A stretch of 64,000 bases of DNA from Bacteroidales bacterium (GCA_038249705.1 JBBSDC010000003.1:766-64765), one strand, 5' to 3'; counted from the first letter of the stretch, positions 3,560-37,996 are shown. Translations and numbers: made by a program. Notes: generated by a model from the letters alone, not told the origin.

Positions 3560-5125
3560 TTAATCCTTAACTCTTCGTAAATCCAGATCCTGAAAATCGA
3601 AACTGAAATCGATGTTGGGAGATATACCTTTCATGCGGATGCTCTGGGCTTTGCCTTCTTCATCCAAACTAAAAATGGCGAAAGCGTCGGCATTCATATC
3701 CTGGTATTCCCATTTAATGGCGAAGGAGTTCCCTTTATAAAAGCTCATCGGGCCATTGAGTTTTGGCGAACGGAACGATTTGATCCAGAGCTGATTATCC
3801 TTCACAAAAACCTCCATCTTTCCGAACCACTTATCTTCGTATATACCTGTATAGTCAACGGTTTTGATATGCGAATGATCAGCGGTTTTAACTGTTTCCC
3901 AAACTGTCATAGTTACAGAATCGCCTGCACTCTCGTTGGCCTGATAACGCTTATAATAGGTTTCGAGCCAATCGAAATTATCAAGCCCAAGGTAGCTGTC
4001 TAAAATAGATTGTGTAACGACAGTAAACAATGCACCGCCACCGTTTTCTGTATTTGTTAATACTACAACACCCAAATTAAGGTCCGGAATCATAATGGTT
4101 TTCGAAAGCATTCCCGGCAAACCGCCTGTGTGCGAAACACTTAAATTACCTTTAACATCAATTAAACCCCAGCCTAAACCATAACCAGCAAAATGCGAAT
4201 TATAGCGTGGATTTTGATTCATATTGGTCGTAGTATGGATTTTCCACATTTCGTTTTGGCTGGCGCGGGTAAAAAGTTGTTTTTCCAAATCCGGACCATA
4301 TTTTCCCTTGTTCAGATGCACTAACATCCAGTTGCTTAAATCGTTTACATTAGAGATAATTCCACCGGCAGCTCCGTTAATCATCTCCTGATAAAGTGGG
4401 ATTTGCCTTATTGTTCCGGTTCCTGTTGAATGCGGCATGGCCATATTGCTTTTATCTTTCATTTTCGAAAGTGCACTATAGGTATTATCCATTTGTAGCG
4501 GTTCAAGGATTCTTTTGCTGATAAAATCTTCCCAGCTCATGCCACTTATCCTTGCAATTACTTCACCGGCAACCAGATAGAGTAAATTATCATAATCAAA
4601 TTTAGTCCTGAATGCCGAAACCGGTTCAAAGTGCTGAAAATTTGATAAAATATCTTTCATTGTAAAGTCCGATCCGTCAGGAAAAAACATCAGATCGCCT
4701 GCCCCTAGCCCAAGTCCGCTGCGGTGTGTTAGCAAATCCTGAATATTGAAATTGGCGGTAACGTATTCGTTGTACATGGTAAATTCAGGGATATATTTAA
4801 CCACCTTATCGTTCCACGACAGTTTGCCTTCTTCAACCAGAATTGCAAGTGCGGCAGTTGTAAAAGCTTTGCTATTTGAGGCAATCTCAAAATTAGTATG
4901 CTCATTAACAGGCTTTTTCGTTTCAACAGATTTTACACCATACCCTTTTTGATGAACAATTTTTCCATCCTTTACAATAGCTACGGCCACTCCGGCAACA
5001 TTAAACTTGGCCATAGATTTTTCGACCAGCTGATCCACTTCGGCGGATGATATCTGAGCTATCGCTGTGCTGTGAATGATTATGGCTGCTAACAGAAACG
5101 AAATGACAATTCCGATTTTTTTCAT
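3560..5125 (-). CDS. secreted serine hydrolase, beta-lactamase/PBP4-like family with a C-terminal lipocalin-like (DUF3471-type) domain
   Basis: It has a signal peptide (MKKIGIVISFLLAAIIIHSTAIAQ), an SxxK motif (SNSKAF), a YxN motif (YDN) and an HTGG-type third motif (SHTGGLPG). Confidence 0.8.
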   Translation of the reverse strand: MKKIGIVISFLLAAIIIHSTAIAQISSAEVDQLVEKSMAKFNVAGVAVAIVKDGKIVHQKGYGVKSVETKKPVNEHTNFEIASNSKAFTTAALAILVEEGKLSWNDKVVKYIPEFTMYNEYVTANFNIQDLLTHRSGLGLGAGDLMFFPDGSDFTMKDILSNFQHFEPVSAFRTKFDYDNLLYLVAGEVIARISGMSWEDFISKRILEPLQMDNTYSALSKMKDKSNMAMPHSTGTGTIRQIPLYQEMINGAAGGIISNVNDLSNWMLVHLNKGKYGPDLEKQLFTRASQNEMWKIHTTTNMNQNPRYNSHFAGYGLGWGLIDVKGNLSVSHTGGLPGMLSKTIMIPDLNLGVVVLTNTENGGGALFTVVTQSILDSYLGLDNFDWLETYYKRYQANESAGDSVTMTVWETVKTADHSHIKTVDYTGIYEDKWFGKMEVFVKDNQLWIKSFRSPKLNGPMSFYKGNSFAIKWEYQDMNADAFAIFSLDEEGKAQSIRMKGISPNIDFSFDFQDLDLRRVKD

Positions 5126-5183
5126 GTGGATGGATATTAGTTGTTAGGTTGGTATTGATTTGATGAGAGTTTGTGAAGATTGC

Positions 5184-5191
5184 CAAAGATA
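5184..5191 (-). promoter_or_regulatory. candidate Bacteroidetes -7 promoter box (TATCTTTG)
   Basis: Exact TAnnTTTG on the minus strand, 59 nt upstream of the serine hydrolase ATG. Confidence 0.35.
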
Positions 5192-5288
5192 GGAAATCCA
5201 ATGAAATTAGGGATACCTGCCATAATTAACTGTAAGCCAAATCTCAAAAAGCAGGCTCCTCACTTCATTTTGAATTAACAAAAAAACA

Positions 5289-7352
5289 TTACGGACTGAA
5301 ATCGAAGCGCAATCCAAAAAAAATGTGACGAGGCAATCCCGGGTAATAGTAACGCGGCTCATTATTGCCAAATGCTACTGCATTTACAACCAGCATGGAA
5401 GCATAGCGGGTGTCGCTCAAGTTATTAACACCAGCATAAAAACGAAGAATCCCTGTTTTGTAAACAGGCAGTTTGGCTGAAATTTTTAAATCAGCAATAA
5501 AATAACGTGGATAGTCCAAAGAGTTTTTATCGGTAAGATATTGATCGCCAAAATACTGAAAGTTAGCGAATACCTCAAGCGAAGAAATTGGGCTCCATGT
5601 AAATTGCAGCAGTAAAGTTTGCGCCGGAATACCTGGTAAATCGTTGCCATCATACGAATTCCCATCATCGGAAAAATCAACAAAACGGTTTCGGGAAACA
5701 GTACCACTTAAATTGGATGTTAACTTGCCGGGGAAATGTGGCTTGTCGAAAAACCGGTTTTTCAACATAATTTCTATTCCATTATGACGTGTTTTCCCTG
5801 CGTTTGTACCTATAAAAATATCTTCGGTCACACGCTTGGTTACAAGCAAGTTATTGAGTTCTATCCAGTATAAAGCGATATCCAGTTCAAAGGCTTTATC
5901 ATAAAAATTTATGCGGGTGCCAATTTCATACTGGTATCCTTGTTCGGGCTTTATATCCGGATTTACATCTCCAGCAGGCAATAAAGTTTCCTCCGGCGAA
6001 GGAAGTGAAAATCCATGTCCGGCCGATGCAAACACCGCCAAATGTTTATTGGGAGCATAATTGATACCAATCCGTGGAGAAAAGATAAGAGGAAATTCTC
6101 TCGCGCCTCTCTGATCGCCATTGGTACTATAAAGATCGGTAAGCTTGTAGCTGATATGATTTGCGGCAGCAGCAAATGAAATACTCAGCTTACTGAGCGG
6201 CCGGTAATTACTTATTGCAAAAACATTGATCTGGTTGCGATTTTCGCGATTTTGGTTTACCAGGTTATCAGCCTTATCGAGTTTCCATTTGTACTGTTCA
6301 GTAATTATCTCGGTTCCAGCAACCAAATCCATCCTGTCAAAATAAAATGTCGCTTTTTCACGAATTCCTGCCGACATCACCTTGTCAGTCAAGTTGTTGA
6401 ACGGACGTTTTTCATATCCATCGTACCATTTACCAAAGACAGTAAACCGGTTAACAACCCTTTTCCGGATTTTGGTAACTACATTAATACCGGTCAAAAC
6501 TTTGCTGTACTTTTTATATCCACCTACTTCGAGCCAAGCAGCGGCAGCAGCTTCCGGATTATTTTCGAACTGAGTTTTACCCAACGAACTCGGGATTCCT
6601 GCATCAGTACTAATCACCATCAACAGGGGATTTATCTCCCAAAATTTATTTTTCCATTGCCCGGTGGAAAGGAATGAAGTTCGCTTATAGTGATTATTCT
6701 CACGGTATCCATCGGATTGTAGATGACCCAGACTGGCCCATAATGAATTGTTACTCTTATTAATTGTTCCCGAAAGATGAGTGTTCCAGGTATTGAAATT
6801 TCCATAAGTAGTATTCGCACCGATTTCACTTACCGATTTCGAAGGAGTGTAAATGTTTATAGCACCTCCAAATCCGGAACCATAAATTGCGGATGCAGGT
6901 CCTTTTATCACTTCCAATCGTCCGATACTCTGAATATCAATATCTTCGGGCGACGAAACACCATCGGAAGAAGTAAGAGGCATATCGTTCAGGTAGAATC
7001 GGATGCGGTTGGTATTGTAAGGAGTGCGGCTGCCCATTCCACGAATTACAATGCGGTTGGTCGCAAAAGTTCCGCTTTGTATGGTAATGCCGGGAATTGA
7101 ATTGAGTGCTTCTTTCAGGCTTGTGCCATCAGAAATATTTATTCCTTTGGGAGTCAGCAAAGAAATACTGCCAGGAATATGGTGGAAATCAGCGGTAAAC
7201 TGGTATGATTCTATCTTTACTTCACCGAGTAAAATAACTGAATCAGGCTCCCTGTCAGCTGCAGACGGATTGCCTGTTTCCTGAGCATTTCCTTTTACTT
7301 CGGTTATAATAAATAGCAGACTGATAATATACAACCGCAGGAATTTGATCAT
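5289..7352 (-). CDS. TonB-dependent outer-membrane receptor (no SusD partner)
   Basis: It has a signal peptide, a plug domain (IESYQF...VIKGPASAIYGSGFGGAINIYT) and a C-terminal beta-barrel ending GLRFDF. Confidence 0.85.
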   Translation of the reverse strand: MIKFLRLYIISLLFIITEVKGNAQETGNPSAADREPDSVILLGEVKIESYQFTADFHHIPGSISLLTPKGINISDGTSLKEALNSIPGITIQSGTFATNRIVIRGMGSRTPYNTNRIRFYLNDMPLTSSDGVSSPEDIDIQSIGRLEVIKGPASAIYGSGFGGAINIYTPSKSVSEIGANTTYGNFNTWNTHLSGTINKSNNSLWASLGHLQSDGYRENNHYKRTSFLSTGQWKNKFWEINPLLMVISTDAGIPSSLGKTQFENNPEAAAAAWLEVGGYKKYSKVLTGINVVTKIRKRVVNRFTVFGKWYDGYEKRPFNNLTDKVMSAGIREKATFYFDRMDLVAGTEIITEQYKWKLDKADNLVNQNRENRNQINVFAISNYRPLSKLSISFAAAANHISYKLTDLYSTNGDQRGAREFPLIFSPRIGINYAPNKHLAVFASAGHGFSLPSPEETLLPAGDVNPDIKPEQGYQYEIGTRINFYDKAFELDIALYWIELNNLLVTKRVTEDIFIGTNAGKTRHNGIEIMLKNRFFDKPHFPGKLTSNLSGTVSRNRFVDFSDDGNSYDGNDLPGIPAQTLLLQFTWSPISSLEVFANFQYFGDQYLTDKNSLDYPRYFIADLKISAKLPVYKTGILRFYAGVNNLSDTRYASMLVVNAVAFGNNEPRYYYPGLPRHIFFGLRFDFSP

Positions 7353-7458
7353 ACTCGATGCTCTGATTGTTTAAACTGATTTTTTTATACCCAATAAGTT
7401 AAAAATTTCGGGGTTCAGAATTCAAAGACCGAATTCCACGGAAATTTAAACTTCTGAA

Positions 7459-8904
7459 TTACTGCTTGCTCACTTTACCTTCAACGGGCATTAAACGTAC
7501 AATTTTTCCCGGACTTTCGATGGCAACATAAATCAATCCTTCGGGGCTGACTACCACATTTCTAACACGGCCAATTCCGGTTAAAAGTTTTTCGGTATGC
7601 ATGACTGAATGCTCGTTTACAACAACTCTTTCAATATATTTAAAACGTAATGACCCAACAAACAGGTTATTATGCCAGTTTTTGTAGCGGTCGCCGGTTA
7701 GGAAAGTCATGCCACAGGGAGCAATTGAAGGATTCCAGTAAAAAACTGGTTGCTCCATTCCTTCTTTTTCGGTTAGCTCAGTTATAACACTTCCATCGTA
7801 ATCGATACCATAACTGATAACAGGCCAGCCATAGTTTTTTCCGGGTTCGATGAGGTTAATTTCGTCACCTCCGCGTGGTCCATGCTCACTAACCCAAAGT
7901 TCGTTGGTAAGCGGATTTATACACGTTCCCTGCGGATTGCGGTGCCCATAACTGTATATGGAAGGCAAAGCACCTTTAGTGTTTACAAACGGATTATCTT
8001 TTGGAATGGAGCCATCATCGTTAATACGGTGTATTTTACCGTTTGCATTGTCGAGTTTCTGAGGAAAATCGAAATGCTGTCCGCGGTCGCCGATACCGAA
8101 AAACAAGTGCCCGTTTTTATCAAAAGCAAGTTTGCTGCCGAAATGATGTTGCTTGTACGTATTCGGATTACCTTTAAATATCACTTGCTGATCAACCAGT
8201 TTGTTCCCTTCAAGCCTTGCACGCATAATTGCTGTATTACCAAATGATTTGATTACTTTAGAGTCCAAAGCACTGTACGACATGTAAATCCATCCGTTCT
8301 TTTTGTAATCAGGATGCAGGCATACATCAAGTAAACCTCCCTGTCCGACTGCCATAATATCGGGTAAACCTTCGATAGGAGCTGAAAGTTTTCCGTTTGC
8401 AAACCGGTATAATATGCCGGAGCGCTCTGTAATAAGCAGATCGCCATTGGGCAAAAATGCAAGTCCCCAGGGTATATCTAATCCTGTAACAACGGTATCC
8501 ACAATAAATTGCTGTACTTCGCTTTCAATAAGCCCGGCTACAGTAACTGCTGGCTTCAACAGACTTTTATCTGCAGGAATACCTTTTTTTACATATGTGG
8601 CAAGGGCTTCAAGTTGGTCATCCGAAAATGTTTTAGCGAACGAAGGCATTCCCATATTCTCAATGCCATCCTTAATACTTTTTACAGCGGATGAGTTGTC
8701 TTTTTCATCCATCCATTTTTTGGCTGCAAATTTTTCGAGATTTTCGCCATGGCAACCGGCACAATAGGTCTGGTAATTTCGGGCAGCATCATTACTAACA
8801 ACTGCTTTTGGCACATCAGGCTTATGCTTTATGCATGTAGAGCCTATAAGTCCTAAGGAAACCAGCACTAATGTAAATGCTGCTAAAATATAAATCCGTT
8901 TCAT
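7459..8904 (-). CDS. cytochrome c domain fused to a PQQ-dependent (soluble glucose/sorbosone dehydrogenase family) sugar dehydrogenase
   Basis: The N-terminus has a signal peptide and the CAGCH haem-binding motif, with a downstream Met (MGMPSF). The rest is a six-bladed propeller typical of GDH-B/PF07995 (GLAFLPNGDLLITER, YSYGHRNPQG, GPRGGDEIN). Confidence 0.8.
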   Translation of the reverse strand: MKRIYILAAFTLVLVSLGLIGSTCIKHKPDVPKAVVSNDAARNYQTYCAGCHGENLEKFAAKKWMDEKDNSSAVKSIKDGIENMGMPSFAKTFSDDQLEALATYVKKGIPADKSLLKPAVTVAGLIESEVQQFIVDTVVTGLDIPWGLAFLPNGDLLITERSGILYRFANGKLSAPIEGLPDIMAVGQGGLLDVCLHPDYKKNGWIYMSYSALDSKVIKSFGNTAIMRARLEGNKLVDQQVIFKGNPNTYKQHHFGSKLAFDKNGHLFFGIGDRGQHFDFPQKLDNANGKIHRINDDGSIPKDNPFVNTKGALPSIYSYGHRNPQGTCINPLTNELWVSEHGPRGGDEINLIEPGKNYGWPVISYGIDYDGSVITELTEKEGMEQPVFYWNPSIAPCGMTFLTGDRYKNWHNNLFVGSLRFKYIERVVVNEHSVMHTEKLLTGIGRVRNVVVSPEGLIYVAIESPGKIVRLMPVEGKVSKQ

Positions 8905-23591: not shown

Positions 23592-23627
23592 ATTCCTTTT
23601 AATAAAACATAGAATCATAAATTGCTG

Positions 23628-24149
23628 ATGCATACTATTAAAAAAACATCAATCTGGCTGATAGTATTAACTTTACTATCAGCCAGTTGTGTTACAGAAA
23701 GCGGTAAACCTGAAAAAGCCGGATTAAACAGGCTCGACTGGTTTATCGGAAGCTGGACAGGTGAAACCAGCGAAAGTATTTTTACCGAAACATGGGTAAA
23801 AGTTAACGACACACTTTTTACCGGGCAGAGCTATTTTATTAAAGGCAGCGATACACTCAACAGCGAAACAATATCGCTGCAGCAACAGGACACTTCAGTA
23901 TTTTATGTACCTTTGGTTGAAGGGCAGAATGATAATAAACCCATATCCTTCAAACTTACTTATTCGGATGGCACAAATGCTATTTTTGAAAATCCGGAGC
24001 ATGATTTCCCGCAAAAGATAGCTTATCAGCTTAAAGAAAACGATTCGCTTATTGCAACAATTTCGGGAAGTAATAACGGTAAAACCAGAAGTATCAGGTT
24101 TCCGATGAGCCACACGAAAAGTAACCATATGAAAAAAGCAATAAAGTGA
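23628..24149 (+). CDS. lipoprotein, DUF6265-like
   Basis: It has a lipobox (LLSASC). LDWFIGSWTGE and FENPEHDFPQKIAYQL resemble DUF6265 as I remember it. Confidence 0.5.
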   Translation: MHTIKKTSIWLIVLTLLSASCVTESGKPEKAGLNRLDWFIGSWTGETSESIFTETWVKVNDTLFTGQSYFIKGSDTLNSETISLQQQDTSVFYVPLVEGQNDNKPISFKLTYSDGTNAIFENPEHDFPQKIAYQLKENDSLIATISGSNNGKTRSIRFPMSHTKSNHMKKAIK

Positions 24150-24526
24150 AACTTAAATTTCTTGAAAATATAAACGAGTATGAGGAACATGCCATTCGCC
24201 TGAATGATTTTGACAAATCACAGGCAGGCTTATTTCTTCAAATCCTGTCAGGACTAGTCAATACGAAAATTAATACTATTGAACTATCTGATTATGAATT
24301 TATTGAATCTGTTAATTGCAGTTTGACTTTGAGAATATCAGAAACTGACGAAGGAATTGTAACTGATGATTTCAAGCAGTTTTACTGTGATTTAACCACA
24401 GAAGGATATAGCGAAATGATAAAACTTATTGAACCATTCTGCATAAAAGAAACTGACGCATACCGGATACTATACGATCTTGACAATCCTATTGAATTTA
24501 TTTTTTCTGCCGGGAAGGAGAATTAA
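24146..24526 (+). CDS. hypothetical acidic protein
   Basis: 126-aa ORF with a GTG start overlapping the upstream TGA (AAGTGAAA). I recognise no motif. Confidence 0.4.
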   Translation: MKLKFLENINEYEEHAIRLNDFDKSQAGLFLQILSGLVNTKINTIELSDYEFIESVNCSLTLRISETDEGIVTDDFKQFYCDLTTEGYSEMIKLIEPFCIKETDAYRILYDLDNPIEFIFSAGKEN

Positions 24527-24631
24527 ACTTTTCCTTATTTTTGAATATAGAGTATAGAAAAGGTATTATTGAATTTTACAGGAAACTTTTATAAAGCTTC
24601 CAAAAAAAGTTCTGAATAAACCACTATAATT

Positions 24632-26242
<1,611 letters not shown>

Positions 26243-26665: not shown

Positions 26666-29600
26666 ATGCTCGAAAAAATTATTGATTTCAGTATCCGTAA
26701 CAAACTGATTGTTATTCTTTTCACTTTAACCATTTCAGCATTCGGGGTATATGCCATTTTACGTATCCCGGTGGGCGCAGTTCCCGATATTACCAATAAC
26801 CAGGTTCAGGTTATTACTACTTCCGGCAATTTATCAACGCAGGAAATAGAGCAGTTTATAACAGCGCCGGTTGAACTCGAAATGGCGAATCTGCCCGGAG
26901 TTGTCGAAATTCGGTCTATTTCGAAATTCGGACTTTCGGTTGTGACTATTGTTTTTAACGATAAGATAGGTACTTATCTTCCCCGTCAGCTTATCGCTGA
27001 AAAGATCAAAGCCGCCTCTGCCAACATTCCCGAAGGTTTTGGCACACCCGAAATGGGGCCAATTACAACCGGATTAGGCGAAATATACCAGTATATCCTT
27101 GATGTAAAACCTGGTTTTGAAGGGAAATATTCGGCCATGGAATTGCGTACCATACAGGATTGGATTGTAAAACGTCAGTTATCGGGCATCAATGGTGTGG
27201 TTGAAGTAAACAGTTGGGGCGGGTTTCTGAAGCAATACGAAATTGCAATTGATCCGGCACGTATGAGGAGCATGAATATTACCTTGATGGAGGTTTTTGA
27301 AGCCGTTGAAGCCAACAACAGTATTTCGGGCGGCGCATATATTGAAAAAACCAACCAAAGCTATTTTATCCGCGGCGACGGACAGGTAAAATCGCTTGAG
27401 GATATTGAGAGCATGGTGGTGAAAAACAAAGGCGGAATTCCCATCCGTGTGAAAGAAATTGCTACTGTTCAATATGGGTATGCTAACCGGTTTGGAGCCA
27501 TAACAGCCAATGGCAAAGGCGAAAAAGTGTTAGGGCAGGTGATGATGTTGAAGGATGCAAATTCAAAACTGGTTATCAACGAGGTTAAAAAACGTGTTGC
27601 CGAAGTTCAGAAAAATTTACCGGAAGGTATTTTTATCAATCCTATTCTCGAACGTAGCGAATTGATTTCGCGTACTTCGTTTACCGTTGTCGAAAACCTG
27701 GTACTGGGATGCCTCATTGTTATTTTGATCGTAATCATTTTGCTTGGAAACGTGCGTTCGGCACTTGTAATTGCATCCATGATACCGCTAGCCTTGCTTT
27801 TTACGATTTCGATGATGTATGTTTTCGGTATCGATGCGAACCTGATGAGCCTTGGCGCCCTCGACTTCGGAATTATAATTGACGGAGCGGTTATTATCGT
27901 CGAATTTATAGCTATCAGGATAACTTCAGGCAAAGCGGCTTACGACAGGTTACACGGAGCTGAACGACAAGCTTTGTTAGATAAAATTACGTTTAAAGGA
28001 GCTACGCGAATGATGAGTTCGGCTATTTTCGGACAAATCATTATACTTATCGTTTTTATACCTATCCTTTCGCTCAGTGGTGTTGAAGGCAAAATGTTCC
28101 GTCCGATGGCACTGTCATTCAGTTTTGCAATTATCGGAGCTATGATTCTTGGATTGACCTGGCTTCCCGTTGCCGCATCGCTGTTCCTCCGGCCCGAAAA
28201 AGAAAACAAACGGAGCCTTTCGAAAATGATAATGAATTTTGCATATAAAACATATACGCCGGCTATGCAATGGTCGTGCAATCACAAACGCATTGTGCTT
28301 GGCTCGGCATTGGCATCATTAGTGCTGACTGCTTTTCTGTTTGCTCGAATGGGTGGCGAGTTTGTGCCAACACTCGATGAAGGAGATTTTGTGATTCAGC
28401 CGGTTTTGAAAACAGGAACTTCTCTTTCGAAAACTGTCGAAATGACAACCCGGATGGAAAATATTCTTATTCAAAAATTCCCGGAAGTAGATCAGATCGT
28501 TTGCCGCATCGGTGCAGCCGAAGTTCCTACCGATCCCATGTCGATGGAAGAAATTGATATGATCATTAAACTCAAGCCCCGGAAAGATTGGGTTTCAGCC
28601 AAAAACAAAGAAGACCTGGCTGATAAATTTAAAGAAGCTTTATCGGTAATTCCAGGCGTTGAATATGAATTTACACAGCCTATCGAGATGCGCTTCAATG
28701 AATTAATAACCGGAGTGAGGGCTGATATTGCCGTGAAAATATTTGGCGAAAACCTTGAATATCTTGATAAGAAAGCGTCCGAAATTAAAGAACTTATTGC
28801 TGACATACCTGGCGCTGCCGATATTATTCTCGAAAAAACTGCTGGTCTTCCACAAATGAACATAAAGTACGACAGGGATAAAATTGCTGCTTATGGGCTT
28901 AACATCCAAACACTTAACAGGTATCTCTCCATGGCCTTCGGTGGCGAAACTACCGGAATAGTTTTTGAAGGCGAAAAACGTTTTGATATGGTTGTGAGGC
29001 TGCAACAACAAAGTCGTAAGGACATTGACAATATCCGGAATCTACAGGTGCCTTTGCCTGAAGGCGACCAAATCCCGCTAAGCGAGTTGGCAGAAATTAC
29101 TTACACTGAAGGTCCGGCTAAGATTTCGCGCGATAATACGCACCGCCGGGTGGTGGTGAGCGTAAATGTACGAAACCGCGATTTACAGTCGGTGGTTGAA
29201 GATATTCAGGCTAAAATCAATAAAAATATCACTCTCGAACCTGGAAATTATATCTCTTACGGTGGCCAGTTCGAGAATTTAAAAAATGCCACCGACCGAC
29301 TGATGTTTGCCGTTCCGATTGCTCTGCTGCTGATATTTGTTTTCCTGCATTTTGCATTCAAATCATTTAAAGATGCCGTTATGATTTTTACCGCCGTTCC
29401 TTTGGCTACAGTCGGAGGTGTGCTGTTTCTTTGGATACGTGGTATGCCTTTCAGTGTGTCGGCAGGAATTGGTTTTATTGCGCTGTTCGGTATCGCGGTA
29501 TTAAACGGCATAGTGCTGATAGAGCATTTAAAAGAGATGAAACAGAATGGTATGACTAATATGCGCGAACTTATTCTGAAAGGCACCCGCGAACGACTGC

Positions 29601-31012
29601 GTCCTGTTATTTTAACAGCCGCAGCGGCAGCACTGGGCTTTCTTCCAATGGCTATTTCTACCGGCTCGGGAGCCGAAGTACAGCGCCCGCTTGCTACTGT
29701 GGTTATTGGCGGACTGGTAACTTCGACCCTGCTAACCATGATAGCATTGCCCCTGCTTTTCGAAATTTTCAATAATGTTACCGGAATACAATTGTGGCCG
29801 TTACGGTTTAAACGAAATATTAAAACACTATCCATTGGAATATTATTGCTTGCAACTGCAGTGCCTGCCTTCGCCCAAACCCGGCCAATCAGCCTGGATG
29901 AAGCTGTTCAAACCGCGTTGAAAAACAACAAACAGATCAATGCGTATTCACTTAAAGTAAAGGAGGCTGAAGCACTCAGGCCATCGGCATACACTATTGA
30001 TAAAACGCTCGTTTACTATGGTTCCGATCAGAATAACATTGCCGAAAACGGTTATCCGTTGAAAGTATTCGGACTGGAGCAAAACATTAATTTCCCGACT
30101 ATCTATTTCGCTCAAAATAAGGCAAATACCATTGGAATTTCCATTGCTGAAAAAGAATTGATGCTGCAAACGCAAATACTTACCAGGGAAGTTTCGCAGG
30201 CATATTTTGAAATTGTCTATCTCCTGAACAAACAGCAGATATATATAAAAGTGGATAGTCTTTACCGTAATTTCACTAAAATGACTGAGCTTAAATATCA
30301 GAAAGGTGATATCAGCCGTCTGGATTTGCTCAATGCAAAAGCTAAGCAGCAACAAATTTCTGTTGCCCTGAGCCAGGTGAAATTCAACCTCGAAACCGGA
30401 TTAGAAAAACTTAAAGCCTTTATTCAGTCCGACAGCATTTTCGACGTTCCAATGCAGGATCTTACTTTGGTAACGGTGCAGGATATCAATGCTGAATCGT
30501 CACCTGACATTCTTTTATTGAAAATGCAGAATGAGTATCAGAATGCTTTGCTTAAAGTGGAACGCAACCGGCTTTTACCTGATTTATCTTTAAGTTATTA
30601 TAACGGAACCAATTCGTACGAAGGCTCCAAAAATTACCAGGGATTTCAAGTCGGATTGGCGGTGCCGATATTTTTCGGCGAACAAAATGCGAGGATAAAA
30701 GCCAATAAAATAGCCGTGAATATTAATGAGAACCTACAGTTAAATGATATATCAACCTTGAAGGCAAAAAAGGCTGAACTAAACAATGAGCTTACAAAAT
30801 TCAAGGAATCAATAGATTACTACAATGCAACGGGTAAGGAGCTGAGCGAAGAGATTATCCGTTCGGCCCGGCAAAGCTACGAGATGGGCGGAATTGACTT
30901 TTTTCAATTTGCGCTGAGTATCGAAAATGCACTGGCATTAACGCTGGACTACTATGAAAATGTTTCGAAATACAATTATTTCGCACTGGAAATCAATTAT
31001 TTAACAAAGTAA
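26666..31012 (+). CDS. czcA: CusA/CzcA-type heavy-metal RND permease fused to a TolC-like outer-membrane factor domain
   Basis: 1448 aa. Residues 1 to ~1040 form a typical 12-TM CzcA. A hydrophobic signal-like segment (NIKTLSIGILLLATAVPAFAQ, about 29815..29878) follows. After it come ~380 aa of OMF-type coiled repeats beginning TRPISLDEAVQTALKNNKQI. Confidence 0.8.
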   Translation: MLEKIIDFSIRNKLIVILFTLTISAFGVYAILRIPVGAVPDITNNQVQVITTSGNLSTQEIEQFITAPVELEMANLPGVVEIRSISKFGLSVVTIVFNDKIGTYLPRQLIAEKIKAASANIPEGFGTPEMGPITTGLGEIYQYILDVKPGFEGKYSAMELRTIQDWIVKRQLSGINGVVEVNSWGGFLKQYEIAIDPARMRSMNITLMEVFEAVEANNSISGGAYIEKTNQSYFIRGDGQVKSLEDIESMVVKNKGGIPIRVKEIATVQYGYANRFGAITANGKGEKVLGQVMMLKDANSKLVINEVKKRVAEVQKNLPEGIFINPILERSELISRTSFTVVENLVLGCLIVILIVIILLGNVRSALVIASMIPLALLFTISMMYVFGIDANLMSLGALDFGIIIDGAVIIVEFIAIRITSGKAAYDRLHGAERQALLDKITFKGATRMMSSAIFGQIIILIVFIPILSLSGVEGKMFRPMALSFSFAIIGAMILGLTWLPVAASLFLRPEKENKRSLSKMIMNFAYKTYTPAMQWSCNHKRIVLGSALASLVLTAFLFARMGGEFVPTLDEGDFVIQPVLKTGTSLSKTVEMTTRMENILIQKFPEVDQIVCRIGAAEVPTDPMSMEEIDMIIKLKPRKDWVSAKNKEDLADKFKEALSVIPGVEYEFTQPIEMRFNELITGVRADIAVKIFGENLEYLDKKASEIKELIADIPGAADIILEKTAGLPQMNIKYDRDKIAAYGLNIQTLNRYLSMAFGGETTGIVFEGEKRFDMVVRLQQQSRKDIDNIRNLQVPLPEGDQIPLSELAEITYTEGPAKISRDNTHRRVVVSVNVRNRDLQSVVEDIQAKINKNITLEPGNYISYGGQFENLKNATDRLMFAVPIALLLIFVFLHFAFKSFKDAVMIFTAVPLATVGGVLFLWIRGMPFSVSAGIGFIALFGIAVLNGIVLIEHLKEMKQNGMTNMRELILKGTRERLRPVILTAAAAALGFLPMAISTGSGAEVQRPLATVVIGGLVTSTLLTMIALPLLFEIFNNVTGIQLWPLRFKRNIKTLSIGILLLATAVPAFAQTRPISLDEAVQTALKNNKQINAYSLKVKEAEALRPSAYTIDKTLVYYGSDQNNIAENGYPLKVFGLEQNINFPTIYFAQNKANTIGISIAEKELMLQTQILTREVSQAYFEIVYLLNKQQIYIKVDSLYRNFTKMTELKYQKGDISRLDLLNAKAKQQQISVALSQVKFNLETGLEKLKAFIQSDSIFDVPMQDLTLVTVQDINAESSPDILLLKMQNEYQNALLKVERNRLLPDLSLSYYNGTNSYEGSKNYQGFQVGLAVPIFFGEQNARIKANKIAVNINENLQLNDISTLKAKKAELNNELTKFKESIDYYNATGKELSEEIIRSARQSYEMGGIDFFQFALSIENALALTLDYYENVSKYNYFALEINYLTK

Positions 31013-31021
31013 GAGCACAAT

Positions 31022-32149
31022 ATGAAAACAAATAAAATTTTCAATACAATAATTACTCTGATGATTTTCATTGCAAGCGGGTGTGGAAATCAATCCGCAA
31101 CCGAACAGGAAACTGAAGAACAATCAGGTGATAGGATAGAAATAAGCATAGCCCAGTTTGAAGGCGACAGCATGAAAATCGGTGAACTGTCCATTCAGAA
31201 ATTTGAAGATGAAGTTATTTGCAATGGAAACATCACTGCTCCTACTAACGGAATTGCCCAGATCAGCACCCCGATTTCAGGAATCGTTGAATCCATCAGT
31301 TGTTCGATGGGCGATTATGTGCAAAAAGGAAAAACTCTTTGCATGATTTCGAGCAATGAGCTCATGATTATACAACAGGAATACACCGAAACTTCTGCCA
31401 GACTGAAACAATTAAAAACAGAATACGAAAGGAGTAAAAGCCTTTATGATGAGAAAATCGGAGCTGAGAAAGATTTTATAGCTACCGAAAGTGAGTATAA
31501 GGTTATGTTATCTAAATATCAATCACTTAAGCTACGGTTACAACTGTTTAAACTCAATATTTCAAAAATTGAAGCTGGCGAACTCTATTCCCTGTTTCCT
31601 GTTTTTTCGCCTATAAACGGCTATATCACAAGCCAGAATATGGTTTTAGGACAGTTTATTGAGCAGCAGAAAAACCTTGTCGAAATAGTTGATGTTAACA
31701 AGCTGCAGCTTCAGTTGTCAGTCTTCGAAAAAGAAATAGGTAAACTTAAAACAGGGCAAAACATACTTTTCAAAACCATGGGTGAAACAGCAGCTATGCA
31801 TACGGCCATGTTAATCTCCATTTCAAAAACTATTGATCCGGTTTCGAAAACTATTCTTTGCCTGGCAAAGATCACCGACAAAAAAGGCATGAACCTGGTA
31901 AACCGCTCCTTTATTGAGGCTCGTATAACAGTTAACCAGAAGGATGCTAATGCGTTACCCTCCGAATCCATCCTGAAATCAGGTAAAGACTATTTTATTT
32001 ATATTGTCGAAAAATCTGACAAGCAGACATATTTCCTGCGCAAGCAAAAAATTGAAATTGGTAAAACTTCGAAAGGATTTACCGAAATTACAGGTGATAC
32101 TGATTTCACGAAAGTATTGATAAAAGGAGTTTATAACTTGCCGGTTTAA
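31022..32149 (+). CDS. efflux RND periplasmic adaptor subunit (CzcB/HlyD-like lipoprotein)
   Basis: It has a lipobox (FIASGC), a lipoyl-like/coiled-coil hairpin (LKQLKTEYERSKSLYDEKIGAEKDF) and a beta-barrel domain. It starts 9 bp after the pump gene. Confidence 0.8.
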   Translation: MKTNKIFNTIITLMIFIASGCGNQSATEQETEEQSGDRIEISIAQFEGDSMKIGELSIQKFEDEVICNGNITAPTNGIAQISTPISGIVESISCSMGDYVQKGKTLCMISSNELMIIQQEYTETSARLKQLKTEYERSKSLYDEKIGAEKDFIATESEYKVMLSKYQSLKLRLQLFKLNISKIEAGELYSLFPVFSPINGYITSQNMVLGQFIEQQKNLVEIVDVNKLQLQLSVFEKEIGKLKTGQNILFKTMGETAAMHTAMLISISKTIDPVSKTILCLAKITDKKGMNLVNRSFIEARITVNQKDANALPSESILKSGKDYFIYIVEKSDKQTYFLRKQKIEIGKTSKGFTEITGDTDFTKVLIKGVYNLPV

Positions 32150-32393: not shown

Positions 32394-32425
32394 AAAAAAA
32401 GCTGCCTTGGTCGGGCAGCTTTTTT
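32394..32425 (-). terminator. rho-independent terminator of gcvP (bidirectional architecture)
   Basis: A7 run, stem gctgcc / ggcagc, then T6, located 22 bp beyond the gcvP stop. Confidence 0.75.
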
Positions 32426-32447
32426 AATTTAGGAAAATATTTATGAA

Positions 32448-35333
32448 TTACTCTTTCACGTAACTCTCAATCGGCGCACAGGTGCAAATCAAATTCCGGT
32501 CGCCCCAGGCATCGTCGATACGGGTAACAGCAGGAAAGTATTTATCTTCCTTTGCACATGGCATCGGGAAAGCTGCAGTTTCGCGGGTATATGGCAGGGT
32601 CCAGTTGTCAGTAGTTACCATGGCCAGTGTATGAGGCGCATGTTTTATCACATTGTCATGTTTGTCGGTTCGGGCTTCTTCAATATCAGCAATCTCCTTG
32701 CGAATACTGATCATAGCATCCACAAAGCGGTCGAGTTCGCTGAGCGGCTCGCTTTCGGTAGGTTCAACCATAAGCGTTCCCATTACCGGGAAAGCGACTG
32801 TTGGCGCATGAAAACCATAGTCCATCAGGCGCTTGGCAATGTCGATAACTGCCACATCCGCTGTTTTCAGAAACTGGTTGCAATCGAGAATAAGTTCATG
32901 AGCAACTCTTCCTTTGCTACCGGTATAAAGGATTTTATAATGACCTTCGAGGCGTGTTTTAATGTAATTGGCTGTCAGGATTGCATATTTTGTTGCTTCG
33001 GTAAGACCATTGCCCCCGAGCAATTTGATATACGCATACGAAATGGGTAAAACCAGAGCGCTACCATATGGAGCAGCTGCAACAGCCTGAATTGCCTGAC
33101 TTCCACCGGTTTTCACCAAAGGATGACCAGGAAGGAAAGGCACGAGGTGCTCTGCAACGCCAATCGGGCCAACGCCCGGACCACCGCCACCGTGTGGTAT
33201 TGCAAAGGTTTTATGCAGATTCAGATGGCAAACATCAGCTCCGATTGTTCCAGGATTGGTAAGTCCGACCTGAGCATTCATGTTGGCACCATCCATGTAA
33301 ACTTGTCCACCATTTTCGTGAATAATAGCGGCAATTTCGAGGATACTTTCTTCGAAAACACCGTGTGTTGAAGGATAAGTAACCATAAGTGCTGAGAGAT
33401 CATTCTTATGCTTATCCGCTTTTTCGCGAAGATCAGCCATATCCACATTTCCGTTTGGATCGGTTTTCACAACTATCACATCCATACCGGCCATTGCGGC
33501 ACTGGCTGGATTTGTTCCGTGCGCGGAAGCAGGAATAAGGCAAACTTTCCGGTGTCCTTCGCCACGACTTTCGTGATACGCTTTAATTACCAGCAATCCG
33601 GCATACTCGCCCGAAGCGCCTGAATTAGGCTGCATCGAAACGGCTTTAAAACCGGTAATTTCGCATAACGCTTTTTCCAGTTCCCTGATCAGGATGTTGT
33701 AACCTTCGGTTTGATCGGCAGGAGCAAATGGGTGAATAGCGCCAAATTCGGGCCAGCTCAACGGAATAAGTTCAGCCACAGCGTTGAGTTTCATGGTACA
33801 CGATCCTAAAGGTATCATGCTGCGGTTCAGAGCCAGGTCGCGGTTTTCAAGTTTTTTAAGGAAACGCATCATTTCCGTTTCCGAATGGTAACTGTTAAAC
33901 ACGGATTCTTTCAGATATTCCGACTGACGATCCATTGACGGGGCAAAAGTGCGTATGAGACCACATTCGTCAGGATTGCACACAAATTCAATATATTGTT
34001 TTTTAGCTGCTGAGGCGAAAATATGCAGAACGAGGTTTACATCATCAAGCGAAGAGGTTTCGTCGAGGCTGATCCCAATTTTATCCTCACCAATATAATT
34101 GAAGTTTACATGACTTTCGACTGCCAGTTTACGTAAAACATCCATATTTACGCCATCGGGGATACTGATGAGTAAAGTGTCGAAGAAATTGGCATTCAGT
34201 TGTTTATAACCGTATTTCTGAACTTCAACAGCCAGCACGCCGGTAAGAATATTAATATGCCTTGCGATATCCCGGATACCTTTCGGTCCGTGGTAAACAG
34301 CATACATACCGGCCATAATAGCCAGCAATGCCTGGGCTGTACAGATATTGGATGTAGCGCGTTCGCGTTTGATATGTTGTTCGCGGGTTTGCAAAGCCAT
34401 GCGCAAAGCACGGTTGCCCTGAGCATCAACTGAAACGCCTATGATCCTGCCTGGAATAAAGCGTTTATATTCCTCTTTAGTTGCAAAAAAACCTGCATGT
34501 GGACCACCAAAACCCATTGGCACACCAAAACGTTGTGTGGTTCCAACCACAACATCAGCTCCCCATTCGCCCGGAGGTGTAAGCAAAGCCAGGCTCAGCA
34601 GGTCGGCAGCAACAGCCACAGCAATACCACTTTCGTGAGCGCGGTTTACCAGTTTGCGGTATTCGTGAACTTCGCCATACTGATTGGGATATTGAAGAAG
34701 CATGCCGTAAATCTCGGGCGAGGGTTCAAAGTCAGTACACGATTTTACAATGATTTTAATTCCAAGGTGTTTTGCACGGGTTTGAAGTACGGCAATAGTT
34801 TGTGGATAAGTGTTTACAGAAACAAGAAAAGTATTTGCTCCGGTTTTTACAGCATCTCGCGAACGTGCATTATGCAACATTATCATTGCTTCAGCCGCGG
34901 AAGTAGCCTCGTCAAGAAGTGACGCATTGGCTAAAGGCATCCCGGTCAGATCAGTGATCATCGTCTGATAGGTGAGCAAAGCTTCGAGGCGGCCCTGCGA
35001 AATTTCTGCCTGGTATGGTGTGTAAGATGTGTACCAGCCCGGGTTTTCGAATACATTTCTCAAAATCACACCAGGAGTAATGGTGTTGTAATACCCCATC
35101 CCGATGTATGATTTGAATACTTTGTTTTTTGAAGCAAGCGCTTTGATGTGATTCAGGTATTCGAATTCATTGAGTCCTGCCGGAATATTAAGCGGTTTTG
35201 GCAACCTGATGGAAGCAGGTACAGTTTCATCAATAAGCTGGTCGAGTGAAGTAACTCCGATAGCCTTTAACATGAGTTCGGTTTCATCCTTGCCCGGACC
35301 GTTGTGACGATCAATAAAATTGTTGGTAATCAT
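32448..35333 (-). CDS. gcvP: glycine dehydrogenase (aminomethyl-transferring), glycine cleavage P protein
   Basis: 961 aa single-chain P protein with YTPYQAEISQGRLEALL, LGSCTMKLN and the PLP-lysine motif NLHKTFAIPHGGGGPG. Confidence 0.95.
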   Translation of the reverse strand: MITNNFIDRHNGPGKDETELMLKAIGVTSLDQLIDETVPASIRLPKPLNIPAGLNEFEYLNHIKALASKNKVFKSYIGMGYYNTITPGVILRNVFENPGWYTSYTPYQAEISQGRLEALLTYQTMITDLTGMPLANASLLDEATSAAEAMIMLHNARSRDAVKTGANTFLVSVNTYPQTIAVLQTRAKHLGIKIIVKSCTDFEPSPEIYGMLLQYPNQYGEVHEYRKLVNRAHESGIAVAVAADLLSLALLTPPGEWGADVVVGTTQRFGVPMGFGGPHAGFFATKEEYKRFIPGRIIGVSVDAQGNRALRMALQTREQHIKRERATSNICTAQALLAIMAGMYAVYHGPKGIRDIARHINILTGVLAVEVQKYGYKQLNANFFDTLLISIPDGVNMDVLRKLAVESHVNFNYIGEDKIGISLDETSSLDDVNLVLHIFASAAKKQYIEFVCNPDECGLIRTFAPSMDRQSEYLKESVFNSYHSETEMMRFLKKLENRDLALNRSMIPLGSCTMKLNAVAELIPLSWPEFGAIHPFAPADQTEGYNILIRELEKALCEITGFKAVSMQPNSGASGEYAGLLVIKAYHESRGEGHRKVCLIPASAHGTNPASAAMAGMDVIVVKTDPNGNVDMADLREKADKHKNDLSALMVTYPSTHGVFEESILEIAAIIHENGGQVYMDGANMNAQVGLTNPGTIGADVCHLNLHKTFAIPHGGGGPGVGPIGVAEHLVPFLPGHPLVKTGGSQAIQAVAAAPYGSALVLPISYAYIKLLGGNGLTEATKYAILTANYIKTRLEGHYKILYTGSKGRVAHELILDCNQFLKTADVAVIDIAKRLMDYGFHAPTVAFPVMGTLMVEPTESEPLSELDRFVDAMISIRKEIADIEEARTDKHDNVIKHAPHTLAMVTTDNWTLPYTRETAAFPMPCAKEDKYFPAVTRIDDAWGDRNLICTCAPIESYVKE

Positions 35334-35370
35334 ATAGTTATGTATTATTTGTCGTTCCTTTTTGCTGTGG

Positions 35371-35378
35371 CAAAGATA
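35371..35378 (-). promoter_or_regulatory. candidate -7 promoter box (TATCTTTG)
   Basis: Exact TAnnTTTG, 37 nt upstream of the gcvP ATG. Confidence 0.4.
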
Positions 35379-35614
35379 ATAATCTTACTGTGACAGAATT
35401 AAAATCTTACGCAATTGTTAACTAATTAACCGAGATGTTTGTAATTCATTCATTAACTTTCATAATATACTGAATTACAATACAATTAAAATTCGGAAAT
35501 GCTGACATTGTGATACAATTTATTTTTTTAAGAAAGACTGTTGAAAAATTTTTGTTACAAACAATTGGAAGATAGTCAGTATTAAATTGAGGTTTTATTC
35601 TGAACCAGCAATTT

Positions 35615-37996
35615 CTAATCACTCATGCCCATAGAAGTATACAAAAAACTCACTTTTACATAAATATCCGAATTCCTGCCTTTATCGTCGCTGCATGATA
35701 TTTTTATCATTCCGGAAGTGGGAGTAAAAAACAATTTTTCGCCACGTGCAGCTTCCTTAAAAAACTTATCGTTAATGTACCAGTACACTTTATTTACATC
35801 GGATGTAGCCGTAAAAGCCAATTGCAGTTGCTGCTTCGCATTGGCATACAAAATATATTCTTTACCATCAGCGAGCGAAGTAATAACCGGATTATCATTA
35901 TGATAAACCCTGTTGCACAAAGGGTTATGTGGCGGAATTTTACGGTATGGGACCTGTTCTTCTTCGTAAAAAGCAATTAATCCCGGACTCAGATTTGGAA
36001 AATAATCAGTACGGTAACCTGTTTGTGGCATACACGAGCGGCAATAGGAAACACTGCCGGCTTCATCAACAAAAACTGGAATCAAATGGTCGCATTTCCG
36101 GTTTGGCGATACGGCAGGGATATAATCATCCATGATCAGATTAGTACATGATTCGCCGGGTGGCAATCCGGATTCGCTGCATACAAGCCGGAAATCAATT
36201 CCTTCGGGGCGAGTGAACCACACAGGTTTCTGATTAAAAGTGAGGTAGTTGAATATTTTAAAAAGCAATGGAGTGGCAAAATCAGCTCCTGAAAGTTCAG
36301 GAACGCCCGACCCGTCAAAGTTGCCAACCCAAACCCCAACAGTATAATCAGGGTTGTAACCGAAACTCCATGCATCGCGACGGCCATAGGAAGTTCCTGT
36401 TTTCCAGGCGATATGAGGAAGATTCACGGTATTTTCAAAGTTATTCGGCAAATCAGGACGCTTGAGACCGGTAAGTATTTCGTGGATCATCCAGGATGAT
36501 TGGGGACTGAAAAGTGTATCAGCTCCAAAAACTTCATCATCGGGTGAAAAAAGCAAAGGATATTTAATTCCACCGTTTGCCAGGCTGGCATAAAGATTCG
36601 TCAACTCAGTGAGAGTAACTCCGCAGCCTCCCAGAATTACCGAAAGGCCCAGTGTTTTTTTGCGTTCGCTAATCCATTTTAATCCGCCACGGCTGAGTTT
36701 CTCGTTCAGCATATCCACTCCTACCCTGTTTGCCAGATCAACCGCCGGGATATTGAGCGATAAGGCAAGGGCTTGCGAAGCAGTTAACCGCCCACGGAAA
36801 GTTTCATCGTAATTTAAAGGACGATAACCATTGAAATTCTGTGGGATATCCTGTAGAATCGTTTTTGGCGTAATGAGTCCGCGATCTATTGCAAGGGCAT
36901 ACAGAAAAGGTTTCAGTGCACTTCCGGGCGAACGAAGAGCTGAAGCCCCGTCAACCTGTCCCTGGAACTGATTTTCCATAAATCCGGCAGAGCCTACATA
37001 AGCAATAACGGCATGTTTGCGGTTATCAATCAGCACCACAGCGGCATTTCCAACACCCATTCCTCGGTACATATTCACATCGTTACGCACTGTGTTTTCG
37101 ACAAAATCCTGTACTCCTGAATTGATAAACGTTTTTATAACAGGATCGGAATCATGCATTCGGGTTAGCAGTCGCGATAAATGAGGCACTTGTTTCGGGG
37201 CACTTTGCCGTTTAGCTGTAAGAGGCTCAAGTAGAGCATCATCCAACGCCAGTTTATCAAAAATCTGATTCCTGTTAAGTTTTATCAGCCAGTAATTCCT
37301 TGCCTTAACAATACTTTCATTATGAATCCCTAACCGCCTGTGATTGGGATCGTTGGGGATAACTGCCAAAGTAACAATCTGAGCCAGACTAAGCGCCTGA
37401 GGTTCCTGTCCGAAATACAAAAAGGAAGCTGCTTTTACCCCTTGTATATTCCCGCCGTAAGGCAGCAGATTAATATACAACTCAAGTATTTCATTTTTAG
37501 AATGATGCAGTTCAAGCTGCAAAGCACGGAAACTTTCGAGGAGCTTATTCGCAATATTTCGCTTGCGCGGCTCAAGCATTTTCACCACTTGCATCGAAAT
37601 AGTTGAAGCACCTGATACCTGCTTTCCTGTTGCAATATTTTGCCAAAGTGCCCTGCCAACAGCAAAAGGATTTATTCCGGGATGAAACCTGAACCAGCGA
37701 TCCTCTTTATAAATAAGTGTTTTTATAAGCAAAGGATTTACTTCACCGATTTCCGCTTTCATTCGCCATTGCTGGTCCGACGATAAAGCGGCATTGAGCA
37801 GTTTTTGTTCGTCAGAAAGAATAAGCTTCGAATAATGAATTTTGGGTTTGAAAGGAAAAATTAAATCAATTGCAAAAAACAGAATAAAAACGAATAAAAC
37901 AGCAATTATACTGCGCTTCATAAAACGTGGCAAACCGGTAAACCAGGAATAAACAAATTCCTTAACACGAATAAATAATGCTTTTAATCCTGACAT
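35615..37996 (-). CDS. pbpC: penicillin-binding protein 1C (bifunctional transglycosylase/transpeptidase)
   Basis: It has an N-terminal TM helix, the GT51 motif KEDRWFRFHPGINP, transpeptidase motifs SALKPF and WKTGTS, and a C-terminal PBP1C-type beta domain. The length of 793 aa fits. Confidence 0.85.
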   Translation of the reverse strand: MSGLKALFIRVKEFVYSWFTGLPRFMKRSIIAVLFVFILFFAIDLIFPFKPKIHYSKLILSDEQKLLNAALSSDQQWRMKAEIGEVNPLLIKTLIYKEDRWFRFHPGINPFAVGRALWQNIATGKQVSGASTISMQVVKMLEPRKRNIANKLLESFRALQLELHHSKNEILELYINLLPYGGNIQGVKAASFLYFGQEPQALSLAQIVTLAVIPNDPNHRRLGIHNESIVKARNYWLIKLNRNQIFDKLALDDALLEPLTAKRQSAPKQVPHLSRLLTRMHDSDPVIKTFINSGVQDFVENTVRNDVNMYRGMGVGNAAVVLIDNRKHAVIAYVGSAGFMENQFQGQVDGASALRSPGSALKPFLYALAIDRGLITPKTILQDIPQNFNGYRPLNYDETFRGRLTASQALALSLNIPAVDLANRVGVDMLNEKLSRGGLKWISERKKTLGLSVILGGCGVTLTELTNLYASLANGGIKYPLLFSPDDEVFGADTLFSPQSSWMIHEILTGLKRPDLPNNFENTVNLPHIAWKTGTSYGRRDAWSFGYNPDYTVGVWVGNFDGSGVPELSGADFATPLLFKIFNYLTFNQKPVWFTRPEGIDFRLVCSESGLPPGESCTNLIMDDYIPAVSPNRKCDHLIPVFVDEAGSVSYCRSCMPQTGYRTDYFPNLSPGLIAFYEEEQVPYRKIPPHNPLCNRVYHNDNPVITSLADGKEYILYANAKQQLQLAFTATSDVNKVYWYINDKFFKEAARGEKLFFTPTSGMIKISCSDDKGRNSDIYVKVSFLYTSMGMSD

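Follow-up and report, generated by a model that had tools for sequence, protein, structure and literature searches.

Tripartite efflux pumps are, in the textbook view, built from three genes and three proteins. In a 64,000-nucleotide stretch of DNA from a Bacteroidales bacterium (GCA_038249705.1, JBBSDC010000003.1:766-64765; this whole stretch is called the window below), a czcA-type gene runs on beyond its permease domain into sequence of an outer-membrane factor (OMF). Are permease and channel truly encoded together, and how could one chain then serve two membranes? An initial annotation of the locus had proposed an in-frame fusion with a hinge resembling a Sec signal peptide; the hinge might act as a 13th transmembrane (TM) helix that exports the OMF domain, and cleavage there would yield two proteins in a 1:1 ratio. 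As described below, the permease and the outer channel of one metal efflux system are a single gene. Its product is likely to be a polyprotein, which signal peptidase I (SPase I) would cut after Ala1070 into an RND permease and an OMF. What would emerge is an ordinary pump made through an unusual polyprotein route, and it does not overturn how such pumps work.

The Fusion Gene and Its Two Domains

The fusion gene is read without stop or frame change over 1448 codons. Its product is composed of a permease (residues 1-1046), a hinge of 24 residues (1047-1070) and an OMF (1071-1448). The features considered first are the following:

26666..31012, plus strand: fusion open reading frame (ORF) for the polyprotein of RND permease, hinge and OMF; 1448 residues, calculated mass 161.1 kDa
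26666..29803, plus strand: HME-type RND permease domain, residues 1-1046 (Pfam, NCBIfam, alignment with ZneA and CusA, hydropathy)
29699-29755, plus strand: TM12, about residues 1012-1030 (hydropathy)
29876..31009, plus strand: mature OMF domain, residues 1071-1448; 378 residues, 43.2 kDa (two Pfam OEP repeats, AlphaFold2 model, Foldseek, profile search)

The permease part is complete. Pfam ACR_tran matches residues 5-1035 (E 5e-281), and NCBIfam TIGR00914 (CusA/CzcA; TC 2.A.6.1) covers residues 1-1035 with 1155.5 bits, against a cutoff of 701. It can be aligned over its full length with the zinc pump ZneA (664 bits) and the copper pump CusA (584 bits), both of solved structure. A hydropathy scan gives 12 segments in the 1+6 / 1+5 pattern expected of an RND protein with its two large periplasmic loops, followed by a 13th hydrophobic segment at residues 1052-1070. 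The motif LPLLFEIFNNV, which the initial annotation had noticed near the permease end, is located at residues 1028-1038. The TM4 motif DFGIIIDGAVIIVEF, at residue 401 of the fusion ORF, has the form DFGx3DGAx3VEF; among 81 sequences of the family, it ends in VEF in 60 and in VEY in 8, the acidic core being retained. By contrast, the canonical form DFGx3DGAx3VEN is reportedly the TM4 signature of the divalent-cation HME pumps, as described by Nies in 2003. Because the last residue of the motif is F or Y instead of the canonical N, divalent metal cations can only tentatively be proposed as the substrate.

The OMF part is also complete. Pfam OEP (PF02321; TC 1.B.17) matches it with 89.9 bits against a cutoff of 22, in two repeats reaching residue 1447, so that the stretch of about 380 residues of TolC/CzcC-like sequence announced by the initial annotation is indeed there, with 378 residues. 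The AlphaFold2 (AF2) model of residues 1041-1448, built on 55 homologues, has a pLDDT of 90.7 and corresponds to a complete OMF protomer, with four β-strands (75-85, 91-101, 266-275, 284-292) and two 69-residue helices. Using Foldseek, this model was found related to TOprJ1, TolC, CusC, OprM and SilC, with TM-scores of 0.68-0.75. A first sequence profile (A2) was dominated by RND columns; the profile rebuilt from the mature OMF only (A3) matches OprM (E 1.5e-7), CmeC and SilC. A single-sequence search of the PDB with the OMF part gave no match. The export signal of the OMF is internal (residues 1047-1070) and there is no lipobox Cys; the OMF is not a lipoprotein. It is predicted to form a TolC-like trimeric outer-membrane channel.

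Conservation of the Fusion

The fusion is widespread. A protein search was run with residues 961-1448 as the query (last 110 permease residues, hinge and OMF). Among the top 120 database proteins, nearly all span the whole query and contain the two Pfam domains, even at identities as low as about 40%, and the closest relatives (60-89% identity) are likewise fused. The mention, in the initial annotation, of CzcA homologues of about 1440 residues elsewhere in Bacteroidota was therefore correct; full-length representatives of 1447-1457 residues include P0124, P0237 and P0252. The idea that no full-length fusions exist, suggested by search proteins that were all of 852 residues or fewer, was rejected; these are fragments from short metagenome contigs.

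In a genome scan using one genome per species, the best 80 related species genomes were compared at their fusion loci. The reading frame is open through the junction in 80/80 loci, which chance could not account for. The open frame extends over at least 1400 residues in 69 of them; seven others are clipped by contig ends and four (L001, L009, L029, L030) are broken elsewhere, in the permease part. No interruption was found at the hinge in any of the 80. The carriers, about 19 of which are cultured isolates from unrelated sequencing projects, belong to Bacteroidales, Marinilabiliales, many Flavobacteriales, Cytophagales and Saprospiraceae, with a few Ignavibacteriota and Chlorobiota. Cultured carriers include Flavobacterium cauense R2A-7 (L024), Maribacter sedimenticola DSM 19840 (L071), Psychroserpens burtonensis DSM 12212 (L021) and Aequorivita antarctica SW49 (L048). 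Thus, the in-frame fusion proposed for the window is borne out by an uninterrupted frame, two complete domains and a junction conserved across the 80 genomes. Neither a stop or frameshift nor uniformly separate orthologous genes, which the initial annotation had named as grounds for giving up the fusion, were encountered: the frame is open and the closest orthologues are uniformly fused.

As a side observation, in one protein of 438 residues (P0123), the first ~13 residues of an RND permease (MLDKIINFSLKNN) are followed at once by the last part of TM12, then by the hinge and an entire OMF. The protein seems to derive from a fusion gene by internal deletion, only the export signal and the OMF having been retained.

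The Hinge Has the Pattern of a Signal Peptide

The hinge can be divided as follows, the arrow marking the predicted cut:

29804..29824, plus strand: n-region RFKRNIK, residues 1047-1053; net charge +4, predicted cytoplasmic
29825..29863, plus strand: h-region TLSIGILLLATAV, residues 1054-1066; apolar run, part of the 13th hydrophobic segment
29864..29875, plus strand: c-region PAFA, residues 1067-1070; predicted SPase I site A-F-A↓Q

The hinge sequence reported initially, RFKRNIKTLSIGILLLATAVPAFAQ, is present and lies at residues 1047-1071, that is, nucleotides 29804..29878; the start first given, 29800, was four nucleotides off. The cut predicted after Ala1070 falls between nucleotides 29875 and 29876. 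The n-, h- and c-regions and the AxA-like AFA-Q site recognized by the initial annotation recur as a pattern in 81/81 sequences. In these, the n-region is rich in K/R (mean net charge +3.9), the apolar run has a mean of 11.3 residues (range 6-15), and Pro or Gly is frequent at -4 to -7. Position -3 is V, G, A, S, I or L in most, position -1 is A (40), S (23), G (14) or T (4), and position +1 is Gln in all 81. Mean pairwise identity is 0.19 in the hinge vs 0.84 in the adjacent TM12 region. A variable sequence with an invariant pattern indicates that the hinge evolves as signal peptides do. The 13th hydrophobic segment has a Kyte-Doolittle (KD) hydropathy of 1.83 over 19 residues. In the AF2 model, the h-region is helical with low to medium confidence; it is not long enough to anchor a protein stably in the membrane.

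These features fit a Sec/SPase I signal peptide of the Q-rule type, except that they start at residue 1047, behind 12 TM helices, and not at the N-terminus. According to the Bacteroidetes Q-rule, about 71% (mean) of SPase I substrates expose an N-terminal Gln, which is converted to pyroglutamate by glutaminyl cyclase (Bochtler et al. 2018, PMC5837995; such substrates are also treated in PMC10653852). The share of +1 Gln is high in Ignavibacterium album too (77%; PMC5837995). Does the source organism follow this rule? A crude scan of the window returned the following start codons:

5125 (minus), 7352 (minus), 9169 (plus), 9666 (plus), 10516 (plus), 13881 (plus), 21522 (plus), 63192 (plus): SPase I-type N-terminal signal peptides

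Each of the eight terminates in x-[AS]↓Q; the source organism thus follows the Q-rule. Examples such as ...SSGTFA↓QSK and ...SMGSFA↓QVQ resemble the hinge, ...AVPAFA↓QTR. Four other N-termini in the window, at 31022, 23628, 61105 (minus) and 51561 (minus), have a lipobox Cys, a further one at 8904 (minus) being doubtful. Outside Bacteroidota, +1 Gln is also found in fusion homologues of Melioribacteraceae (L032, L059) and Chlorobiota (L036), which fits either Q-rule use in these groups or horizontal transfer from Bacteroidota.

Unfused Relatives and Origin of the Hinge

All cluster representatives were searched with the mature OMF domain alone. Many OMFs of about 400 residues consist of an initial M, a K/R-containing n-region, an h-region, [ASG]↓Q, and then the same mature N-terminus. 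Seven unfused cases (nine loci) were relied on after inspection of their context: L081, L082, L084, L085/L086, L087/L088, L089 and L091. In L085/L086, the order is czcA (1047 residues), OMF (401 residues, 17-nucleotide overlap) and czcB. The order czcA-OMF-czcB is also found in L087/L088, with an ATGA overlap, and in L089 and L084, with 8-nucleotide overlaps. In such unfused A-C-B operons, the czcA stop and the OMF start thus overlap by 4-17 nucleotides in different frames, and therefore a one-base indel interconverts the fused and unfused organizations. Because the N-terminal signal peptide of unfused OMFs corresponds in position to the hinge, the latter is best read, from these comparisons, as the OMF's own signal peptide, retained in place after loss of the stop codon.

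A further trace of a separate gene may be seen in a subset of Flavobacteriaceae fusions (L017, L018, L022, L028, L034, L054, L065), where a Met occurs in frame around positions -20 to -22. It mostly lies within a K-M-N-K-K sequence (L022 and L065 differ), found in about 10 of the 81 homologues. This Met resembles an old start codon, left over from a time when the OMF gene stood alone, and might still permit internal initiation.

The remaining cases differ in their arrangement. In L091 (2-5433), the genes are unfused in the order A-B-C, and its OMF is sister to a fused one (P0166 vs P0210) with 99% bootstrap; gene order as well as fusion state therefore appears fluid in the clade. L081 and L082 contain orphan OMFs. 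That of L081 (2659-6191; P0103), 48% identical to the window OMF domain, is preceded by an ECF sigma factor, a zf-HC2 anti-sigma factor and two LTXXQ/Metal_resist periplasmic proteins. Its start was probably called too short, since translation from an in-frame ATG further upstream, at 4961, would add a proper signal peptide. The L085/L086 operon (723-8339) stands behind a two-component system in a conjugative-transposon-like element (relaxase, MobC, RteC, HTH_17). Since its OMF protein (P0153) occurs in 127 collection blocks, this metal-efflux cassette appears to be widely mobile.

How often the two states have been exchanged is harder to count. Transition counts from a neighbor-joining tree were set aside: the Fitch score is 29, but the tree is star-like. 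Bootstrapping left three supported mixed clades, one of them invalid, because P0202 (L090), apparently unfused, is a fusion with an upstream in-frame stop. Several metagenome copies have premature stops or frame breaks inside the RND part, and gene callers then report a short "standalone" OMF starting at a hinge Met. Counts of unfused OMFs are therefore inflated by such broken copies (L090 1-360; L001, L009, L029, L030), and the ratio of fused to unfused representatives, 44:44, is indicative only, the 44 unfused being an upper bound.

Proposed Processing of the Fusion Protein

From the sequence evidence, the following pathway can be proposed. Sec/YidC-dependent insertion would place the 12-TM permease with its C-terminus in the cytoplasm, as seen in RND permease structures (AcrB, CusA, ZneA). 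Because the permease ends in the cytoplasm, and because the positive n-region obeys the positive-inside rule, the hinge, formerly the Sec signal peptide of the OMF, should insert N-in/C-out as a transient 13th helix, and export of the OMF would begin. SPase I would then cleave behind Ala1070 (AFA↓Q). The first product would be a 117.9-kDa permease retaining the signal peptide as a C-terminal 13th helix. The second would be a 43.2-kDa OMF whose N-terminal Gln is cyclized to pyroglutamate, with a predicted mature N-terminus pyroGlu-TRPISLDEAVQTALK; the junction-spanning sequence of the uncut chain contains ...AVPAFAQTRPISLDEAVQTALK. The OMF would follow the normal chaperone/BAM route, trimerize in the outer membrane and dock through the lipoprotein adaptor. 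The outcome would be an ordinary 3:6:3 pump whose RND and OMF components are synthesized in obligate 1:1 amounts. We infer topology, cleavage, pyroglutamate and substrate from sequence; the 13th-helix export and cleavage into 1:1 products suggested by the initial annotation are supported comparatively, by the +1 Gln in 81/81, by the leaders of the unfused OMFs and by the short linker.

Could the OMF instead be started afresh? Translation might initiate within the hinge, for example at the TTG of codon 1045, the full-length product being minor or non-functional. An in-frame TTG does lie at -28 from the cut site in the window, about 10 of the 81 homologues have the relic K-M-N-K-K sequence, and 24 of 81 have an in-frame ATG at -30 to -14. 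In addition, Bacteroidota initiate translation without Shine-Dalgarno sequences, so that such starts are conceivable. However, the n-region lacks an in-frame ATG in 57 of the 81 sequences, the window offering only the TTG; in about half of the 24, the ATG is at -18 to -14, inside or at the start of the h-region. Moreover, ribosomes translating the RND part would be unhindered, hence the full-length chain would be made anyway and would still need processing. Because 57/81 lack the in-frame ATG, internal initiation cannot, on the sequence data, be the general route. It could contribute in some lineages, and as an explanation of the whole family we consider it improbable.

Alternatively, the protein may stay whole, the hinge being a permanent 13th TM helix and the OMF remaining tethered or having a periplasmic role away from the outer membrane. 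The ORF is continuous, cleavage is a prediction, and the hydropathy of the hinge suffices for a TM segment to be called. Nevertheless, the linker between the predicted cut and the first OMF helix is just ~5-6 residues long in most homologues. The corresponding helix of solved OMFs is part of the equatorial domain, more than 100 Å from the inner membrane in assembled pumps. With so short a linker, an uncut tether could not, to judge from these structures, bring a complete protomer with four β-strands to the outer membrane, where it must sit. The apolar run, with its 6-15 residues, is short for a permanent helix. Cleavage is further favored because the strictly conserved small-x-small↓Q site, typical of SPase I and the Q-rule, would otherwise serve no purpose, and because the free secreted OMF produced by unfused relatives is evidently the functional form. 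An uncleaved protein therefore seems to us quite improbable.

Assuming cleavage, another protease (a rhomboid, a site-2 protease or an autocatalytic activity) might act at or near the hinge. However, small residues at -3 and -1, Gln at +1 and Pro/Gly in the c-region are the conserved features of SPase I substrates in this phylum, and in unfused relatives the homologue of the hinge is a genuine N-terminal signal peptide; we give this idea very little credence. Finally, that an assembly or sequencing artefact (a lost stop or a frameshift) joined two separate genes is scarcely credible: the overlapping stop and start of unfused relatives mean that a one-nucleotide error could fake a fusion, and some metagenome contigs do have errors or pseudogene lesions (the in-frame stop of L090; L001, L009, L029, L030), but the same open junction in 80/80 independent genomes, including the ~19 cultured isolates sequenced by different groups, and the fusion in the nearest relatives (60-89% identity) exclude it.

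Several points nonetheless weigh against SPase I processing of a metal-pump polyprotein. In bacteria, SPase I rarely cuts an internal signal that follows a 12-TM domain, and the retained 13th helix may affect the function of the RND trimer. The site-scoring script behind the 81/81 count demanded [AGSTC]Q, although the Q column is also plain in an unconstrained MAFFT alignment, and the cut site was assigned from its sequence pattern together with an alignment to unfused homologues. The TM4 motif ends in F/Y instead of the canonical N. In the open-access literature, no paper or proteomic record of such a cleavage was found, and the supplements of PMC5837995 have no CzcA/RND entry. Taking these points into account, we still regard cleavage after Ala1070 as the likely fate of the chain.

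Comparison with Known Systems

The window pump has the same three components as CzcCBA, CusCBA and ZneCAB, namely an HME-RND permease, an OMF of TolC/CusC/OprM fold and a CzcB/CusB-type adaptor, and their usual 3:6:3 assembly is also expected for it. It differs from them in that RND and OMF form one ORF via an internal signal peptide, in its gene order (A-C-B vs the proteobacterial C-B-A), and in that its OMF has an N-terminal Gln and is not a lipoprotein, whereas CusC and OprM carry a lipidated Cys. Closer to it are the unfused Bacteroidota operons czcA-OMF-czcB, with the same order, an OMF of ~30-43% identity, and a signal peptide at the same position ending in [ASG]↓Q. There, however, the genes are separate and overlapping and the OMF is translated independently, while the window gene has no stop at this point and its signal peptide is internal. 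Similarly, Q-rule SPase I substrates share the c-region of the hinge (small residues at -3 and -1, Gln at +1), but their signals are N-terminal, while the hinge starts at residue 1047.

A precedent for the proposed processing is said to be the FbcH cytochrome b-c1 polyprotein of Bradyrhizobium japonicum, whose processing at an internal signal peptide was reportedly shown experimentally by Thony-Meyer and colleagues in 1989 and 1991. FbcH resembles the window fusion in having a polytopic domain that ends in the cytoplasm; an internal signal peptide comes next, and behind it an exported subunit that belongs to the same complex. A cut at the signal peptide reportedly gives the two subunits in a 1:1 ratio. 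Two differences should be noted. Both FbcH products are said to stay in or at the inner membrane, while the window OMF would need to pass through the periplasm and rely on BAM for insertion into the outer membrane; and the processing of FbcH is described as experimentally shown, while that of the window fusion is deduced from sequence.

Literature Status and Significance

A natural RND-OMF fusion is not mentioned in reviews of tripartite pumps (PMC8277102, PMC4446572) or in a transporter census of Bacteroides. No natural permease-channel fusion appears in a survey of outer-membrane-protein fusions (PMC4827864) or in a phylogenomic study of HME/HAE-1 pumps (PMC10872679). More generally, no description of an RND-OMF fusion was found in the open-access literature, to which the search was confined, so that absence from the wider literature or from TCDB/InterPro is unproven. 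Fusion proteins are nevertheless abundant in databases, where they are annotated merely as CzcA or RND permease; the architecture is seen but not described.

If the proposed reading is true, annotation as very long "CzcA" misrepresents a whole clade of Bacteroidota pumps, and surveys of outer-membrane channels and resistance genes that work gene by gene miss the fused OMF. The family would offer a natural system for SPase I acting on an internal signal behind a 12-TM domain, a model for how an outer-membrane protein leaves a membrane-embedded precursor and enters the periplasmic chaperone/BAM route, and an RND permease extended by one more helix at its C-terminus. Since fused and overlapping-gene forms repeatedly occur side by side, the family would also provide a clean evolutionary test of why genes fuse.

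Why should the genes have fused? One suggestion, which we hold to be doubtful, is that the fusion is adaptive in Bacteroidota and their relatives, and that the retained signal peptide has become a functional 13th helix. Because initiation without Shine-Dalgarno sequences makes translational coupling of a downstream OMF unreliable, the fusion would guarantee 1:1 synthesis. The retained helix could, for example, pack against the TM domain, in the way that the small protein AcrZ binds AcrB, or help nucleate assembly of the RND and OMF trimers in cis. Were this so, the window would provide the first outer-membrane β-barrel/α-barrel protein derived from an inner-membrane polytopic precursor, and the first signal peptide retained as a permanent subunit element.

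Adaptor Gene and Genomic Setting

As the initial annotation stated, the adaptor gene starts 9 bp past the fusion stop, giving the order A-C(fused)-B. No separate OMF gene is present within the window operon. The adaptor and the surrounding features are:

31022..32149, plus strand: CzcB/CusB-type periplasmic adaptor (membrane fusion protein), 375 residues (HlyD_D23, TIGR01730, lipoprotein signal ...FIASG↓C)
within 23622-26242: DUF6265 lipoprotein gene, operon neighbor
24632-26242, minus strand: ABC-F ATPase, operon neighbor
32395-32425, minus strand: strong terminator-like hairpin, with the GcvP gene
32448-35333, minus strand: glycine dehydrogenase GcvP, operon neighbor
35615-37996, minus strand: PBP1C-like transglycosylase/transpeptidase, operon neighbor

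The adaptor matches TIGR01730 with 114.1 bits (cutoff 94.9) as well as Pfam HlyD_D23. An adaptor gene is directly downstream of the fusion, on the same strand, in 76/76 loci with enough sequence. No regulator, metal-responsive or other, adjoins the operon, the neighbors (window 23622-26242 and 32395-37996) being housekeeping genes. A scan for sigma-70 promoters and terminators around the operon, of a kind unsuited to Bacteroidota promoters, gave no more hits than shuffled sequence. The orphan OMF homologue P0122 of L082 (6001-8918) adjoins an ABC-F ATPase gene, and the window fusion also neighbors an ABC-F gene, on the opposite strand; this shared neighborhood may be a coincidence or a remnant of synteny.

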